Below, piece after piece: positions 6,667-18,781 of a stretch of DNA of 20,733 nt (position 1 is its first letter; each line of letters opens with the position of its first letter). The position numbers and the translations under genes were made by a program. The notes below the pieces were generated by a model. The model searched no databases. It was not told where the DNA came from and worked only from the letters and a program-made list of their open reading frames with translations. The stretch comes from Candidatus Thalassarchaeaceae archaeon (GTDB lineage: Archaea > Thermoplasmatota > Poseidoniia > Poseidoniales > Thalassarchaeaceae), in NCBI GenBank assembly GCA_030747675.1, contig JASLKH010000084.1:1-20733 (forward strand), given 5' to 3'.

Positions 6667-7629
6667 CTAGGGCAGAGGAACTATCTCACCAGTTAAACCA
6701 TGGATTAGGACGTCACCCCTACTTGGAATTGTTATTTGCCAAGCAGGTAATAATGCCAACCTTGGAATCATCTCAGCCGAAGAAGGATCTAGTTTCCACC
6801 AATGGAGGACACTTCCTTGAACTTGGCTAGTACCTGATTTCTCGGTGATTGTGAAGTGCCTACGTTCCTCACATAGTGATGCAAGATGTGGTGCTAAGAT
6901 GGACTCATCTTGCCATGAATTCGGTTGAAATTGGTGCAACTTCGGAATGAAATCCAAAACTTCCACCTTACCTAAATGATCTATCTCATTTGTGAATGGA
7001 TCTTCAAGGAGTTCCCACCATTGCCTCTCTGCAGCGTCATTTGGCCCCCGCAAAATACCTGTCACTGACCATATCCTAGCATTAAGCAAGACTGGGCGTG
7101 GATTTACATTCGATTGACCAAGGTTCTGAATTATGGATTCTAATTTGACTATTGGACGTAAAGCACTAGGTTCAGTACTAATTAACCTCCGTTCAAGACC
7201 AAGTGATTCTTCCTCAAAAACTGTGCCCGGTACAGACTGTGGAATTGAATCAGGAATTGAGGCATTTAAATCACCGTTCAGTATTGCTTCACCTAACCAT
7301 TGTGCAAATCGATCAGGGCCCCATACATCATAGTTGACATCTCGTCTTGAGGGTTGATTCTCCATACGTAATACCCGTTCAGAAAGCAACCAATGGGTGC
7401 CTTCAGGGGCATCGACTAACCAACGCTCAATTTCTAATGAGTCAAGTGGAGCCCAACCGTCATAAGCATGCCAAAGATGTGTTCCTGATGGCAAATCAGG
7501 CGCACTTCGGGTTCCCGGAGGAGTTGAGATAATTCCTAAAAGGTTTATTCCAGGGCAAGGAGGATGTGGAGGAGCGGGTGAAATAATAGCCCCTAATTGA
7601 GCCAACAAATCCCTGATTAGGCCTTCCAT
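6667..7629 (-). CDS. Conserved-looking hypothetical protein (~320 aa), Trp/Pro-rich
   Basis: Long ORF filling the gap. Probable start is ATG 7629, downstream of a TTTATA box at 7675-7670; the ORF-track TTG 7722 overlaps the rpl30e stop. Confidence 0.7.
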   Translation of the reverse strand: MEGLIRDLLAQLGAIISPAPPHPPCPGINLLGIISTPPGTRSAPDLPSGTHLWHAYDGWAPLDSLEIERWLVDAPEGTHWLLSERVLRMENQPSRRDVNYDVWGPDRFAQWLGEAILNGDLNASIPDSIPQSVPGTVFEEESLGLERRLISTEPSALRPIVKLESIIQNLGQSNVNPRPVLLNARIWSVTGILRGPNDAAERQWWELLEDPFTNEIDHLGKVEVLDFIPKLHQFQPNSWQDESILAPHLASLCEERRHFTITEKSGTSQVQGSVLHWWKLDPSSAEMIPRLALLPAWQITIPSRGDVLIHGLTGEIVPLP

Positions 7630-7669
7630 TACCGACGACGGTGGACGCGCACACCTTGAACACTGCGTG

Positions 7670-7675
7670 TATAAA
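7670..7675 (-). promoter_or_regulatory. TATA box (TTTATA) for the hypothetical gene after rpl30e
   Basis: GGGTTTATAC on the minus strand, 41-46 nt upstream of ATG 7629. Confidence 0.45.
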
Positions 7676-7718
7676 CCCATCAATAGAGACAAATTAGATT
7701 GGAGTTTAAGACTTCCAC

Positions 7719-8018
7719 TCAATCTAAATTTGGACGGAGGCTAAGCAACTCACTGCTGCCCTCATCAAGTACACATATCGCACTAACAGAGAACGGTTTA
7801 CCACAAGCTGCACCAAGTTCACGATTGACTAAATCGACGCGGTGCATAGGGACATCTGGGTGCCTCGCACGCAAATTGTCAATGAAATTTTGTGGACAAT
7901 TTGCCGCAAATATCACCAATTTAGCATCACCTCTTCCACAACCGTCTGTTGCTTGGTTCTGACCGAAGGTCATATTTCCGCTACTTGCTGCTGTCTTCAA
8001 TTGACGACTAATGTCCAT
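7719..8018 (-). CDS. rpl30e: 50S ribosomal protein L30e
   Basis: L7Ae/L30e family pattern (AKLVIFAANCP, ELGAACGKPFSVSAICVLDEGSS) in the canonical position after rpoA2. Confidence 0.93.
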   Translation of the reverse strand: MDISRQLKTAASSGNMTFGQNQATDGCGRGDAKLVIFAANCPQNFIDNLRARHPDVPMHRVDLVNRELGAACGKPFSVSAICVLDEGSSELLSLRPNLD

Positions 8019-8061: not shown

Positions 8062-12715
<4,654 letters not shown>

Positions 12716-12719
<4 letters not shown>

Positions 12720-15700
12720 CTTTGGTCCTCCAGTTCAAGTCTCATGGCTACTCCAAGTGATTTCATCTCATCCAGAAGTAACTTGAATGCGTATGAGGTT
12801 GAAACCGAGAATACCTCGGCCTTATCCCCATGGATTGGGCTAACGTAGCAACGTTTCCTCCAATCCCAATATGCAACGTGACCGCTGTCTGCGCACACGT
12901 ACAAATCCCATCCATCAGATTCGTCAAGTAATCTATCCTTAATCACCATGGAGGCACCATGGGCAATGAGACAATCTCTTTCCATTTCACCAAACCTTAG
13001 TCCACCTTGCCGCGCTCTTCCTTCAGTTGGTTGACGTGTGAGAATCTGTACACGGCCTCGGCTACGAGCGTGGATTTTCCCACTGACCATGTGGTGCAAT
13101 TTCTGATAATAAATTACTCCAACGAAAACCTGTGCTGGGAATTCATCTCCGGTTTCACCATTGATCATTGATTCACGACCAGTGTGTGCAAAACCATGAC
13201 GTAGTAACCCTTCGCGTAGAGAATCTTCCTTCTCTCCATTGAATGCTGTGCCGTCAATCAAACGACCTTCCATGGACCCAACTTTCCCACCAATCATTTC
13301 CAAAATATGAGCTACTGTCATCCTTGATGGAATCGCGTGTGGATTAATGAGCAAATCAGGTACTACACCATCTACTGTAAAAGGCATGTCTTCAGGATCA
13401 ACAAGTCGACCAATGACACCTTTCTGTCCGTGTCTACTAGCAAATTTATCACCTAATTCTGGAATTCTATTTGATCGAACGGTGAGGCGTACGAATCTAC
13501 CTGAATCAAGAGATTCAGTCACGAATACATTGTCAACATAACCACCTTCTCCATGACGAACATTCATGCTTGATTCACGACGCTCTTGTGCCTGCAAGAA
13601 AGCACCATGAGATTCTTCAAGGAATCTTGGGGGGCTTGTTTTACCTACCAAAATTGCTGGTACACGATCTCGGTCTTCAGGTTTATTGGATAATTCAATT
13701 TCGGGGGTTGGTAGACCATCTGCTTCAAGATGTGAATAGGATTCAGGTGATTTTAGCCCCTTTACTTCATCCAATCCAGTACCTGGTATCTCAATTTCAT
13801 CAACTTGGCCACCAGGGAATCGCTTTCGTTCAGCGTTATACGTTCGAACGAATGTCGAACGACCTAGCGCTCGTTGAACACTAGCTCTATTCATAATTAC
13901 AGCGTCTTGCATATTGTATCCATGGTGGGACATTACAGCAACTACGAAGTTTTGACCTGCAGGGCGACGAAGGAATTTGGTAGCCTCCATTGCTCGAGTC
14001 CCAGTCAGGGAGTTTTGTGGATAATGTAGCACGTGCTGACGCGTATCGGGTCGGAGTCGGAAGTTCGCACTTGGTAATCCTAGAGATTGCTTAACCATTG
14101 CAGTTCCACCAGTAACACGCGGTGTAGAGTTGTGTTCAGGGTATGGCACCAAGGCGGCACATACACCTAGAATAAGTTGAGGGTCTATCTCAACATGGGT
14201 GTAAATTAAGGCATCACCTGTCTTCTTTTCTTTTCGCTTTAATTTGTCCAAATCCTCTTGATAATAATTCAAAGGAAGTGAGAATTTTTCTGTAATCTTC
14301 TCGCCATTAGGCATGATTATTTCCGCGGCTAATTTCGCCTTGGAAATTCCTTCATCGCCCAAGTTCAGCCATTCAACCTTGGCAGGGTTAATTGGGCGAC
14401 CGTTCTTTGGACTGGCGGTTGGTAAATCATATGGTCGCGGTGCAACGAGTAAATCTTCTTCCTCTTCTGCATCGACCCATTCAACAATTCCCTCAACTAC
14501 TAGATCATTGAATGAAATAGTACCGTCACGCAAGCCATCAATATATTCTTTGGAAAGTGTAAGACTCCCATTCTCAAGTACCAACAAAGGACGTAGGATT
14601 CGACCCTTGTCTGTATTAATGAAAATGTCTCGATTCACAGCGTCGTGGCGAATACTAACTTCAGGGCGAATTCGGCCACTTCGTCTACGTCGCTTGAAAT
14701 GATCAACCAACTTGTGAGGGTTCATGTGCAGACCAAAAATATCACCATTAACGTGGACTCTTGCTCCTTCGGACCATCCAGTAGGACTTGGGTCAACATC
14801 AGCTTCTGCAAGTAATTCTTTTACTTCATTTTCATCCACTGCTTCTGAGACGTCAATCATTTGTGCCGCATTCTTCACTAAGCCGCAATTCTGTCCTTCA
14901 GGAGTTTCGTTCGGACAGAGACGACCCCATTGAGTGGGGTGCAGGTCACGGGCCTCAAAATGAGGCTGGCTGCGCACAAGGGGGCTGGTTACTCGACGCA
15001 TGTGAGAAAGTGCTGAAAGATACGTAGTTCGATCAAGTAGTTGACTGACACCACTTCGGCCACCAACCCAATTTCCTGTTGCTAATGCATGCATGATTTT
15101 GGATGTAAGAACGTCAGGTCTAAGGCAACTAGTAATTTTGAGTTCGCGCTTACGGTTGTGGTGTCTTTCAAGTTGGTATTTCAGATCACGAGCGAGTTGT
15201 TGAAGTGATACACGGAAAAGATCCTCGATTAAATCACCTGCAAGGCGTACTCTCTTGTTAGCATAATGATCTTTGTCGTTTGGCTCTTTATTACTAATTG
15301 CCATTTCAAGAACTTGGCGCACAATTCTCCCCAAAAATATAGCTTTCTTCTTCCGATTTTCTTCAAGATTACCCAGGTGTGGAAGTAACTCTTTATCGAG
15401 AAGATTCTGAATTCGCTGTTCTCGATATTCCTTTTGTTGGCCTGCAGCAAATTTCTTTTCTAACCATTGCATTCCGTCATCTTGAGTATCAACATTGTAC
15501 TCTTCATTGTCTTTTACTTCGTTAAGGTTAGCAACAATATACTTGAATGTCTCAGTCGGTCCGGCAATAGCCTGGAAGATATCCTGGTCGTTGTCGATAC
15601 CCAAACATCGCATTAACAAAACTACAGGTATTGCTGTTGTTCCTGCACTACTGATTTTGACCATCAACATACCATCTTTGCGCTTTTCGACTGTTAAAGG

Positions 15701-16405
15701 CTTCCTTACACCGGCTTTTTGTGAGAAAATCTTGGCTACTTCAGTCTTTCTGGCATAGCGCTTGTTCATTTCGACGGTAACTCTGTTTGGCGCAAGATCT
15801 TCCATCGAAATAAGAGCTCTTTCTGTACCATTTATGATGAAATAGCCACCAGGGTCACAAGGATCTTCTCCCTTGCTATTCAGTAGTGTATTGTACTGAT
15901 CCATGTCTTCATTACTCAATTCAGGAGTGAGTTTTTTGGGCTTCTCCGCAGAACCAGCGATATGATCAGAATGCAAATTGCAGCGCTGTGAACGGACCAT
16001 TATTGGTACGTTTCCAATCTGGACCTTCTCCTCAAAAATAGGCTGAGGTGTGTCATCTCGATGAATTGTAAAATCGAGATAAATTGGAGACATGTATGTC
16101 AATTTTCTAAGACGGCATTCAAGTGGGAGAGATGGGTGTTCTGAACCATTAGCCTCTCGTATGGTCGGAGGACCTACTTGCATATTTTTCATACGTACAT
16201 GGATTTCGTGATCCAATACGTCAAGTTTAATCATTCCACCTTCATCGTCTTCAAGTAACTCATCTGTACCGATTCGAATGTTGCGAACAATCGATTCAAA
16301 ACGTGACTTCTGACTATCAGAAGTAGGAATGCAATCGTTATATGAGGCAAGTTGATGATTCACTAAGCTTCGTTCTCGAAAGTAACTCTCAATAATTTCC
16401 TTCAT
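12716..16405 (-). CDS. rpoB: RNA polymerase subunit B (Rpo2), unsplit
   Basis: GDKFASRHGQKG, GGLRFGEMERD, CPNETPEGQNCGL, GGYFIINGTER. ATG 16405 follows GGGGGA; the ORF-track start at 16435 overlaps rpoH. Confidence 0.98.
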
Positions 16406-16418
16406 CTCTAAATTCCCC

Positions 16419-17030
16419 CTAGTTACCCTCAACAATCAATCTGTATGCAATACTCTTTCCAGCAGAACGACTGTAACGAATTACGCGGACAACACGGTTG
16501 GCTAGCCAGCCAGCATGTAACTCCTCATTTTCCGCTTCAGTCATTTCCTTGAGTACCTGGACTGCTGGGTCAGTGATTAGGATCTTTGGAAGGAGTTCTT
16601 TGGCAAGACGCATGCCATCTCCAATGGGGTCCTTGTGCATTAAGTCCCACGGAGATAATGCCTCAGCCTCCTCCTCAATTGGAACTAATTCGTGGTGTGG
16701 GACCAAATGATGATTTAATACATTGAATCGGTTTTCACCTGTTGGGATGTCATCGTCATCCAATGCTTTTTGAGAAATTGTGATTCTGCGTGATCGAGTT
16801 CGCTTGCGTGTTCCTTGTTCACGAATTACATTCATCACATTATCGAGGTCGGGACTTTCCATCTCAACTCCAATTTTCTTTGCTACTTGCTCAACACTCA
16901 TCTGCTTGATTGCATCCATATTTGCATCATCAGCAAGTCGATGCGCGTGCTCTTCAGAAACACCTAACTCAATTAGAAGTTTTTTCGTTGAACTCTTTAC
17001 TACCAAAAATTGCGACCCCCTTTTCCCCAT
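16419..17030 (-). CDS. rpoH: RNA polymerase subunit H (Rpo5) with ~90 aa N-terminal extension
   Basis: C-terminal half has FNVLNHHLVPHHE, LPKILITDP and SRSAGKSIAYRLIV. Start is ATG 17030 or TTG 17006; the latter gives MVVKS exactly as in RpoA2 and has AGGGGGT upstream. Confidence 0.92.
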   Translation of the reverse strand: MGKRGSQFLVVKSSTKKLLIELGVSEEHAHRLADDANMDAIKQMSVEQVAKKIGVEMESPDLDNVMNVIREQGTRKRTRSRRITISQKALDDDDIPTGENRFNVLNHHLVPHHELVPIEEEAEALSPWDLMHKDPIGDGMRLAKELLPKILITDPAVQVLKEMTEAENEELHAGWLANRVVRVIRYSRSAGKSIAYRLIVEGN

Positions 17031-17066
17031 AGCCTCGCAGTAAGCCTGTTCCCCAGAAAGATAGAG

Positions 17067-17140
17067 CGGGCCTGACGGGATTCGAACCCGCGGCCGACGG
17101 GTTAAAAGCCCGTCGCTCTACCTGACTAAGCTACAGGCCC
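17067..17140 (-). tRNA. tRNA-Lys(UUU), no intron, CCA not encoded
   Basis: Cloverleaf: acceptor GGGCCTG/CAGGCCC, anticodon stem ACGGG/CCCGT with loop CT-TTT-AA, T loop TTCGAAT, discriminator G. Confidence 0.97.
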
Positions 17141-17344: not shown

Positions 17345-18781
17345 TTGACTATTGAAAGAGAGGTAGAAATCCAATCGAATAATAGTACTGTGGCTTCTTG
17401 GTTAGACCCATCTGGCCACCCAGTTATACTTACAATACCACCCACAGTTTATCCTCCTCGTGAGGACTCAGTATTGCTCGATAATATGTTGGCCGGGCTT
17501 GGGCCGGGCACTGGAAAAACACTTTTGGAGATCGGATGCGGAAGTGGAGCTATTTCAATATCGGCTGCAAAAAGAGGTTGGAGTGTTTCAAGTTGTGATA
17601 TCAACCCTTTTGCAGTTGCTGCCACAATAGGTAATGCGAAGGATTTAGGCGTTGTTAACTCGATCAATGTCGCTGAAGGGGGACCTGGTGAAGAAGGTGA
17701 TTGGTGGCCTGAAGAGGGAGTTGATGTAATTGTCTGGAACCTTCCTTACATGGACCCCCCTGATACAGATAAAGAGGGGCTTGGCCCCCTCGAAGATGCT
17801 GCGATGATCGATTCCTCCTGTGGTGCGAAATTAGCAGCAGAATTAGTGGAGAGCCCTCATATTTTGAATCCAGGAGGGATCATACTTTTGCTTCATAGTA
17901 GTAATGAAGTTGGACGAAATTTACCTCCAATATGGCGAAGGTTAGGGTGGTCCACACGAGTCCAAAGGAGTGAAGTCATTGGAGACGAAGAATTGACTGT
18001 TATTGCTGTATGGCGACCATATGCCATGTCACCTCCAATCCTAATGGATACATGTGATTCTACAAATTCAGAAATTTTGGATGGAGATTATCAAATTGGG
18101 CAACTAATTCAAACCTATAAACAAAAATCTGGACGTGGAAGAAAGAATAAGTTATGGGAAAGTGGAAAAGGTTCTTTTTTGGGGAGTTGGAGTATATCTT
18201 CAAATTCTATAGAAGGGAGCCCTGGGTACTTCCAAATGGGAGCTTCAATAGCTATCCTAGATACGTTTTCCAGTTTTTTGGGTTTTGGATTACCCAGTCA
18301 TTCATGGGCTAATGGCAGTAGACTTACAGAGTTAGGGGTTTTGTTGAAATGGCCTAATGACATCTACCTGGAAATGGCAAAAGAATATGCAAAAATTTGC
18401 GGCATATTGGTAGAAGGTAAAACTAAGGCTGGAAATACTCGTATTGCTATTGGGATAGGGATCAACTCCATTGGACCCAATATTGGAGTGAATACAGCAG
18501 GTTGGAGGGATATCCCTGGGCTTCAAAATGTGAAATTAGAACGTATCAGCGAAGTTCTTCATGCTTCCATGTCATCGGTTTTTGAAATACATCCGCTGCT
18601 AGAAAATACTGCTTTTGATTGTATTCTAGAAGGGCAATATAATGCATTAATCCCCTCATTCAATGCTGGTGGTAATCAAAATATAGGAGCCATCATAGGG
18701 ATTTCAAAAAATGGTCACCTATTAACTGTAAATGGAGAAATTAACAGTCTCGATGAATTGGATTGGCATTGGAATTGCTAA
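17345..18781 (+). CDS. Fusion: HemK2/Mtq2-like SAM methyltransferase + biotin-protein ligase (BPL/BirA catalytic domain)
   Basis: N-half: VYPPREDSVLL, LEIGCGSG, DINP, NLPY. C-half: DSTN, QKSGRGR...WES, LKWPND, KICGILVE, GIGIN. One uninterrupted frame; TTG start behind GGAGG. Confidence 0.85.
   Translation: MTIEREVEIQSNNSTVASWLDPSGHPVILTIPPTVYPPREDSVLLDNMLAGLGPGTGKTLLEIGCGSGAISISAAKRGWSVSSCDINPFAVAATIGNAKDLGVVNSINVAEGGPGEEGDWWPEEGVDVIVWNLPYMDPPDTDKEGLGPLEDAAMIDSSCGAKLAAELVESPHILNPGGIILLLHSSNEVGRNLPPIWRRLGWSTRVQRSEVIGDEELTVIAVWRPYAMSPPILMDTCDSTNSEILDGDYQIGQLIQTYKQKSGRGRKNKLWESGKGSFLGSWSISSNSIEGSPGYFQMGASIAILDTFSSFLGFGLPSHSWANGSRLTELGVLLKWPNDIYLEMAKEYAKICGILVEGKTKAGNTRIAIGIGINSIGPNIGVNTAGWRDIPGLQNVKLERISEVLHASMSSVFEIHPLLENTAFDCILEGQYNALIPSFNAGGNQNIGAIIGISKNGHLLTVNGEINSLDELDWHWNC

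Follow-up and report, generated by a model that had tools for sequence, protein, structure and literature searches.

A paralogous N-terminal head domain on the RNA polymerase subunits RpoH and RpoA'' of Poseidoniales archaea

Twin heads in the rpo operon

The stretch of DNA analysed here (the window; 20,733 nt, contig JASLKH010000084.1 of assembly GCA_030747675.1) comes from a Candidatus Thalassarchaeaceae archaeon of the order Poseidoniales (phylum Thermoplasmatota), the abundant marine archaea also called Marine Group II, and carries, on the minus strand, an RNA polymerase operon in which two of the encoded subunits, RpoH (archaeal Rpo5) and RpoA'' (A'', the product of rpoA2), begin with the same additional domain, referred to below as the head. 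rpoH occupies positions 16419-17006 (195 aa, read from a TTG at 17006) and rpoA2 positions 8062-9633 (523 aa, from an ATG at 9633 that overlaps the rpoA1 stop codon); between these two head-bearing genes, in the same operon and on the same strand, the list of open reading frames (ORFs) places rpoB (12716-16435) and rpoA1 (9633-12719). In RpoH, a five-helix module resembling SAM and tandem helix-hairpin-helix, (HhH)2, domains (codons 1-65, 16812-17006; translation, BLASTP and an AlphaFold (AF2) model) starts (M)VVKSSTKK and is followed by a tether (codons 66-95, 16722-16811) that is predicted to be disordered, in which an Arg-rich stretch, RKRTRSRRITI, precedes an acidic DDDDIP motif. The Rpb5_C assembly domain (PF01191; per-residue model confidence (pLDDT) 80-89) and the stop codon complete the gene (16419-16721). 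The paralogous head of A'' (codons 1-62, 9448-9633) was recognised by translation, by BLASTP and by a profile match to the same positions (E 2.9e-32); it leads into a tether of about codons 63-100 (9334-9447), Gly/Ala/Ser-rich at first and then Arg-rich over 11 residues, and the remainder is the Rpb1 domain 5 region with the stop codon (8062-9333; PF04998).

Both proteins start MVVKS[SA]TKK, and BLASTP aligned the two N-termini without gaps, with 23 of 47 residues identical and 79% positives (E 3e-12). At the nucleotide level 61 of 81 positions were identical over the first 27 codons, and 12 of the 20 differences fell at third positions. Between the two heads of the source genome (codons 2-45) the proportions of synonymous and nonsynonymous differences (pS and pN) were 0.64 and 0.27; across 19 genomes pS ranged from 0.54 to 0.89, which is saturated, with pN at about 0.3. 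Synonymous sites that are saturated while the protein is conserved point to an old duplication maintained by selection at the protein level, and the same pS/pN pattern ruled out a nucleotide-level repeat or gene conversion as the source of the likeness. A whole-genome search using the head found the two copies and no third. A preliminary description of this locus had reported the shared module, its 61 of 81 identical nucleotides, the Arg-rich linker after each copy and an old duplication kept by selection; all of this was borne out, the nucleotide count exactly, and the coordinates were right, with both genes on the minus strand, which that description had left unstated.

An ATG at 17030 offers an alternative start for RpoH, giving a 203-aa reading with 8 additional residues that are unconserved. 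The orthologues listed are mostly 195 aa long, and the extra N-terminal residues of the longer ones are likewise unconserved; as the start at 17006 is the one conserved in orthologues, we take the TTG to be the RpoH start. Relatives keep the gene order and the spacing, the distance from the RpoH head down to the A'' head being about 7.4 kb. Searching with a single head matched 40 of 41 relatives, the exception being a genome that is 72% complete, and nearly all of those that matched had two copies. With a head profile, every genome of the two Poseidoniales families in a sample of the class was matched (40 of 40 in f1 and 65 of 65 in f3, nearly always with two copies), as were all 63 Poseidoniales in a sample of the phylum. 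Two head-bearing subunits per operon are thus found in nearly all Poseidoniales genomes sampled.

Pfam identifies just the canonical cores in the two proteins. The RpoH core matched PF01191 (RNA_pol_Rpb5_C) at 44.9 bits (cut-off 23.5; E 9.7e-12; residues 102-199 of the 203-aa reading) and was likewise above the cut-off in a genome-level search with this model, and the A'' core matched PF04998 (RNA_pol_Rpb1_5) at 152.6 bits (cut-off 28.5; E 1.9e-44). The RpoH core of Poseidoniales is divergent: its score on PF01191 is only 25-56 bits, whereas other members of the phylum reach about 60-120 bits. In the source family and part of f3 the 73 positions of the model are spread over 97-108 residues, which suggests an insertion of about 25-35 aa in the core, around PIEEEAEALSPWDLMHKDPIGDG (window 16422-16721, minus strand); the remainder of f3 matches the model over its second half only. 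One relative has a single in-frame TGA in its A'' core (G042:C25:17002-18030), for which a sequencing error, a pseudogene or recoding are all possible.

Upstream of the operon, a gene for tRNA-Lys(TTT) (17066-17140, minus strand) ends 59 nt before the rpoH start, so the rpoH promoter would have to fit into that gap or rpoH would be co-transcribed with the tRNA. Beyond it, on the plus strand (17345-18781), lies a gene for a 478-aa protein combining an N-terminal S-adenosylmethionine-dependent methyltransferase (PrmA/MTS-like) with a C-terminal biotin/lipoate ligase (BPL_LplA_LipB). At the other end, a 351-aa ORF with no Pfam match (6667-7722, minus strand) lies directly downstream of rpl30e (7719-8018), the slot that nusA fills in many archaeal rpo operons.

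Fold, charge and tether of the heads

The AlphaFold model of the head, for which an alignment of 14 sequences of both types was used, has five helices and a mean pLDDT of 82. In the RpoH head the helices span residues 6-13, 18-25, 30-35, 38-45 and 52-64 at a pLDDT of about 80, and residues 1-3, with a pLDDT below 50, are predicted to be flexible. The best Foldseek matches of this model were FANCM/FAAP24, UvrC, RadA and SARM1 SAM domains (TM 0.6-0.73, probability 0.9-0.99 for the top rows, with weak E-values). An all-against-all comparison with VIA-align returned SAM domains and the HhH domains of FANCM, XPF, Hef, Topo V, NusA and UvrC at Z-scores of 5.5-7.5, with 55-65 (mostly 59-64) of the 66 residues aligned and an rmsd of 1.7-3.8 Å (about 2.2 Å in most rows); sequence identity to the rows listed was 2-25%, and about 10% in the best of them. 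Judged from these models the head appears to belong to the SAM/(HhH)2 five-helix class, an assignment to a fold class alone that does not imply homology, and the earlier guess of a helix-hairpin-helix or SAM-like fold agrees with it.

The first hairpin of the head keeps a single Gly (L-G-[VI]-x-E, with G15 present in 80-100% of the sequences) the second, with sequences such as GVEMES or CETDSE, is acidic and shows no conservation, and the two G-h-G hairpins characteristic of HhH domains are missing. None of the Pfam HhH models (HHH PF00633, HHH_2 and HHH_5 PF14520) matched either head even at an E-value of 10, in a scan that does detect HHH_5 in the A'' extensions of two other Thermoplasmatota families. 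The Pfam SAM models did not match the head, and neither did PF03118, the model of the C-terminal domain of the bacterial polymerase alpha subunit (alpha-CTD), of which no chain appeared among the 50 best VIA-align rows. Residues 1-100 of RpoH gave no Pfam match to the N-terminal jaw of Rpb5 (RNA_pol_Rpb5_N). Designed repeat proteins (dTor, CAP repeat) that came up among PDB sequences in searches with the heads were rejected as chance matches, since their scores sum many sub-significant repeats, each with an i-Evalue above 100.

In a model of full-length RpoH, residues 68-84 and 86-95 have a pLDDT below 50 and lie between a confidently modelled head (about 80) and core, and the connection between the two is therefore predicted to be a disordered tether, the composition of which is conserved across the order. 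The A'' tether is probably disordered as well, judging from its composition. The 40 residues that follow the head have a mean net charge of +3.3 in RpoH and +6.5 in A'' (about 20 genomes each). The head itself is bipolar, with a charge of +4 over residues 1-12 and of about -5 over residues 13-62, and it contains invariant basic residues (K4, K8, K9 and K/R10). About 14 of its positions are more than 90% conserved across both paralogues and the diverged families of orphan proteins described below.

Some of these properties would suit a non-specific hold on DNA, in which two tethered HhH-type domains and their basic tails grip the downstream (or upstream) duplex and stabilise initiation or elongation, in a role like that of the Rpo13 basic tail, the Rpb5 jaw or the contacts between alpha-CTD and UP elements; the orphan proteins would then have borrowed the head as a DNA-binding tag. 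The invariant lysines and the Arg/Lys-rich tethers favour this, as do the structural matches to the DNA-binding (HhH)2 domains of FANCM, XPF, Hef, UvrC and Topo V and the precedent of Rpo13, whose basic tail binds double-stranded DNA beside Rpo5 (PMC3479171). However, the helical body is acidic and without any Pfam HhH match, the second hairpin is acidic and unconserved, and non-specific DNA binding would not usually call for about 14 positions to be more than 90% conserved. An acidic body without G-h-G hairpins speaks against HhH DNA binding of the classical kind, and it does not favour a simple DNA clamp; the proposal of the preliminary description that the two copies could sit side by side as a pseudo-dimeric clamp on downstream DNA found no support. 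We consider DNA holding unlikely, and at the same time a serious rival to the docking role developed below.

The likeness to SAM domains, many of which have been solved as homo- or heterodimers, raises the alternative that the heads associate with one another, the RpoH and A'' copies pairing, as in the pseudo-dimer of the preliminary description, or joining heads on other polymerases, and the orphan heads latching onto those of the polymerase. Bipolar charge would suit head-to-tail contacts, and there are two copies per enzyme in nearly every genome sampled. Contact between heads nevertheless gained no positive support: prediction of a complex between the RpoH head and the A'' head, each with its alignment, returned a score of 0.00, which is no answer either way. 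Helices 4-5 differ between the RpoH and A'' types and are unconserved in the carriers, and the older, single A'' head of other Thermoplasmatota suggests that the module works without a twin, so that self-association seems quite improbable.

The A'' extension in other Thermoplasmatota

Structural papers describe archaeal Rpo5 as consisting of the assembly domain only (PMC2675907, PMC3479171, PMC3906176), and according to two of them no archaeal Rpo5 has an N-terminal domain (PMC3479171, PMC3906176). Outside the Poseidoniales the genomes examined here agree with the first of these statements, as the preliminary description had supposed. In 111 Thermoplasmatota genomes outside the Poseidoniales the RpoH open frames were 76-181 aa long (76-151 aa in all but two), compared with 201-252 aa in most of 29 Poseidoniales genomes, one frame of 141 aa being cut by a contig end. 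The head profile matched 0 of 45 in the other families of the same class and gave two weak matches among 237 genomes in the rest of the phylum (one other family, E about 0.005). The one of these two that was read lies in an ORF that by eye resembles the small subunit of DNA primase, and it was taken as a chance match.

The A'' subunit is extended far more widely. In the sister order A'' is 758-860 aa long and the RpoH open frames are short (81-121 aa), and across 112 other Thermoplasmatota genomes the A'' open frames ranged from 357 to 1001 aa, with only 9 of them at or below 430 aa. In the loci read, 150-541 aa precede the SIGEP motif, compared with about 74 aa in a canonical A''. In six non-Poseidoniales families the extension starts MAK.DT.RAL.RRG[ILM]..[ED].A.K.A and continues into a basic linker. 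When the Poseidoniales heads were compared by hhalign with eight A'' heads from the six other families, residues 4-47 were matched to residues 3-47, in register from the N-terminus, with 84% probability and an E-value of 7.9e-6 (1.8e-4 with four sister-order sequences only). In two families (f11 and f40) the A'' extension contains Pfam HHH_5 repeats (1.7e-30 and 1e-19), and one stretch of such extensions passes the alpha-CTD model PF03118 (25.7 bits, cut-off 23.8). These bona fide HhH repeats in related appendages, including the stretch that passes PF03118, add to the case for DNA holding.

These comparisons suggest that the A'' head is older than the RpoH head and, because RpoH is short everywhere outside the Poseidoniales, that the RpoH copy arose by a duplication specific to this order. 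The simplest history is that an HhH-type appendage on A'' is ancient in Thermoplasmatota, that on the stem lineage of the Poseidoniales it shrank to a single head with a tether, and that rpoH, which lies about 7.4 kb upstream in this operon, received a copy of the 5' end of the A'' gene. The earlier expectation that an A'' extension would be wider in Thermoplasmatota, and that the copy on RpoH is the unusual part, was well founded, since related heads were found on A'' alone and RpoH is short elsewhere. We know of no published description of HhH-bearing N-terminal extensions of A'' in Thermoplasmatota.

Two further features of the non-Poseidoniales extensions were seen. In many of them a second block, about 150 residues long, is conserved, IWSLPEG…VGVAFPINAKQFRYPF.GYIY…SARNYTQI, with no Pfam match (loci L033:337-1671, L034:283-1644, L045, L047, L043 and L044; twice in one family, L047); it has the look of an unassigned domain that became attached to a polymerase subunit by fusion. 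In family f17 (L048:330-779) about 80 Lys-rich low-complexity residues, KKSKKTKKSTSKKT, replace the folded head at the start of A'', the open frame of which, at about 940 aa, implies large further additions.

Carriers outside the polymerase, proposed role and known systems

A profile search of 1.84 billion cluster representatives recovered 204 proteins with a head at an E-value of 1e-3 or better, and in nearly all of the best 150 the match begins at residue 1. Among these 150, 25 are A'' or fragments of it and 14 group with RpoH, including one (P0175) in which the RpoH head and tether alone are followed by a Cys-rich, zinc-ribbon-like protein. At least 13 families, each with 2-5 mutually diverged members, share homologous tails that are not polymerase, besides further singletons 130-1292 aa long; heads of the A'' type and of the RpoH type are both represented among these carriers. 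Over positions 1-30 they are as conserved as the polymerase heads, and conservation declines beyond about positions 41-46; what they share is therefore the basic tail together with the first helix-hairpin-helix and the beginning of helix 3 (about 35-45 residues). In two carriers the head is not at the N-terminus, being internal in P0212 (residues 93-144) and C-terminal in P0203 (residues 452-505), and P0226 and P0200, examples among the carriers read, keep the head with no Arg-rich stretch after it, which tells further against DNA holding. Scans of the orphan carriers against Pfam, PHROGs and PADLOC gave no assignment except for P0212, an 851-aa metagenomic protein that is a defence-type ABC/OLD-like ATPase (PADLOC NsnB 2e-38, together with AriA, GajA and AbiL). 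P0212 also has C2H2-like zinc fingers besides its internal, RpoH-type head.

The strong conservation of the extreme N-terminus suggested another explanation, that the segment is a signal rather than a binding domain, acting as a tag for assembly, chaperoning, modification or turnover, or at the level of the 5' coding region in translation start, and that mobile elements copied it for the sake of expression or stability. Consistent with this, MVVKS[AS]TKK is the most conserved part of the head and stands at residue 1 in almost all of the best 150 of the 204 proteins, residues 1-3 are predicted to be flexible, and conservation in the carriers is confined to the first 35-45 residues or so. Yet saturation of the synonymous sites places the constraint on the protein and not on the mRNA, the conserved positions span two packed helices with buried Leu and Ala in a confidently predicted fold, and the head is not N-terminal in P0212 and P0203. 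A mere N-terminal signal is thus very unlikely; like self-association, it is less likely than DNA holding.

None of the carrier families was found in more than 100 Poseidoniales genomes searched with the head profile, nor in 185,579 species representatives scanned with P0226 and with the P0219 family. The latter scan returned 421 loci, the best 80 of which were all read as A'' (76 by the SIGEP motif and 4 by eye, two of these being cut by contig ends). As the carriers are not found in binned genomes, they would lie on DNA that escapes binning. The C-terminal half of a relative of P0195 was found among co-directional orphan genes on a 16.9-kb metagenome contig (L031), on which three neighbours match PHROGs (endonuclease VII-like, DUF932 and phosphatase-like, the last in a family labelled thymidylate synthase) and the rest of which holds no further head copy. 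Two runs from one study, labelled aquatic viral metagenome, cover this contig in 30 of 30 and 27 of 30 bins at 90-99% identity, and no RNA run is listed among those that cover it. One member of a carrier cluster comes from the Tara 0.1-0.22 µm fraction. These findings fit a virus or another mobile element but are no proof of one. A search of the ESM Atlas returned nothing usable for P0226.

The occurrence of the same head on many non-polymerase proteins shifts its likely role towards that of a docking handle. We propose, tentatively and at a little short of an even chance, that the N-termini of RpoH and A'' are accessory arms, each made of a SAM/(HhH)2-like head of about 65 residues and an Arg/Lys-rich tether of about 30-40 residues, and that they act in the manner of bacterial alpha-CTDs. 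The A'' arm would descend from the older HhH-type appendage, and a Poseidoniales ancestor that copied its 5' end onto rpoH would have given the enzyme two arms. These would serve as tethered handles on the DNA-entry (lower-jaw) side, where downstream DNA is flanked by Rpo5 and the Rpo1C jaw (PMC2675907, PMC3479171, PMC2847245); by position alone, arms with tethers of 30-40 residues could reach the downstream-DNA face. The first 35-45 residues or so (basic N-terminal tail, helix 1, hairpin, helix 2 and the start of helix 3) may bind one conserved partner, which could be protein or DNA, while the basic tethers would hold the heads near nucleic acid. Orphan proteins that share the head probably belong to mobile elements or viruses, and they would engage this partner too. 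A docking handle is favoured over DNA clamping because the body is acidic and without canonical hairpins, because about 14 positions are near-invariant, and because some carriers have no basic tether. That viruses or mobile elements repeatedly copied a specific docking handle from rpoA'' and rpoH onto at least 12 unrelated effector families, the defence-type ATPase among them, is a more doubtful extension of this proposal.

Several points weigh against the docking proposal. The ancestry in HhH domains and the basic tethers speak against a role in binding proteins alone, and a Z-score of about 7 is, by the caveat of the tool itself, one that unrelated small helical bundles can also reach. Neither Pfam nor PDB sequences nor PHROGs gave a significant match to the head. 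The provenance of the carriers is thin, consisting of one partial contig, the virome coverage of one study and one Tara member; scans of IMG/VR with the head profile, P0226 and the P0219 family found no head-bearing gene, and neither P0195 nor the A'' head had a tblastn match in deposited phage and archaeal-virus genomes. The docking role is, moreover, a guess made for an uncultured organism.

If the copying is real, the heads would let effectors attach to the polymerase or to its partner; mimicry of a host polymerase in this way would be new, and its setting would be one of the most abundant groups of archaea in the ocean. The head would also provide a sequence tag for finding the mobile elements and viruses of an uncultured host, and possibly marks their route to host transcription. 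More generally, the usual picture of archaeal RNA polymerase is that of a fixed enzyme with 10-13 subunits; here a whole abundant marine order appears to have two flexible arms on it, and the older A'' appendage is common across Thermoplasmatota. We found no description of the twin heads in open-access papers and preprints on Poseidoniales, Marine Group II, magroviruses, archaeal RNA polymerase with HhH, or Rpo5/Rpo13. We regard the heads as a lineage-specific accessory domain of the RNA polymerase.

The nearest relatives by sequence, the A'' extensions of other Thermoplasmatota, likewise begin at residue 1 of A'' and share the order of basic N-terminus, helix, G-[ILV] hairpin, helix and basic linker. 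They differ in occurring on A'' alone and never on RpoH, in often including further domains (canonical HHH_5 repeats or the unassigned domain of about 150 residues), and in having no MVVKSATKK signature, which is specific to Poseidoniales. With the SAM/(HhH)2 domains (the SAM domains of Scm and Sfmbt, FANCM-FAAP24, XPF/Hef, the UvrC C-terminus, the N-terminal domain of RadA/RAD51, and AR1/AR2 of NusA) the heads share the five-helix topology, whereas identity is low, Pfam finds neither SAM nor HhH, and the canonical G-h-G hairpins are missing.

Among accessory parts of polymerases, the heads appear by their sequences to fall outside the alpha-CTD, Rpb5 jaw and Rpo13 families. The eukaryotic Rpb5 jaw differs from them in fold and lies packed against the enzyme. 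Like the RpoH extension it is an extra N-terminal domain on the same subunit, in the lower jaw beside downstream DNA (PMC2675907, PMC3479171), but it is a domain of about 130 residues rather than a helical head of 65 residues on a predicted disordered tether, and the RpoH extension was acquired independently of it. Archaeal Rpo5 leaves an open, positively charged groove in which Rpo13 docks in Sulfolobus (PMC2675907, PMC3479171, PMC2847245), its basic tail binding double-stranded DNA (PMC3479171), and the Rpo13 paper predicted that analogous fillers of this void might exist in other archaea. Unlike the heads, Rpo13 of Sulfolobales is a separate subunit, neither fused nor duplicated, whose helix-turn-helix core docks in the groove between Rpo5 and the clamp head, and it has no sequence relation to them. 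The closest analogue in logic, as a functional analogy only, is the bacterial alpha-CTD (PF03118), a small helical HhH-type domain that occurs twice per enzyme on a flexible linker to the core, from which it makes mobile contacts with DNA and regulators. It sits at the C-terminus of alpha, the homologue of Rpo3/11, and not at the N-termini of H and A''; the Poseidoniales heads do not match PF03118 and have an acidic body, and contacts with DNA and regulators are known for alpha-CTD only. In linker and copy number the likeness holds, with a tether on RpoH that is predicted to be disordered and two head-bearing subunits per operon. The arms would thus be a natural, independent parallel to the alpha-CTDs, the Rpb5 jaw and the Rpo13 of Sulfolobus, and recombinant domains make the question of a void filler beside Rpo5 testable.

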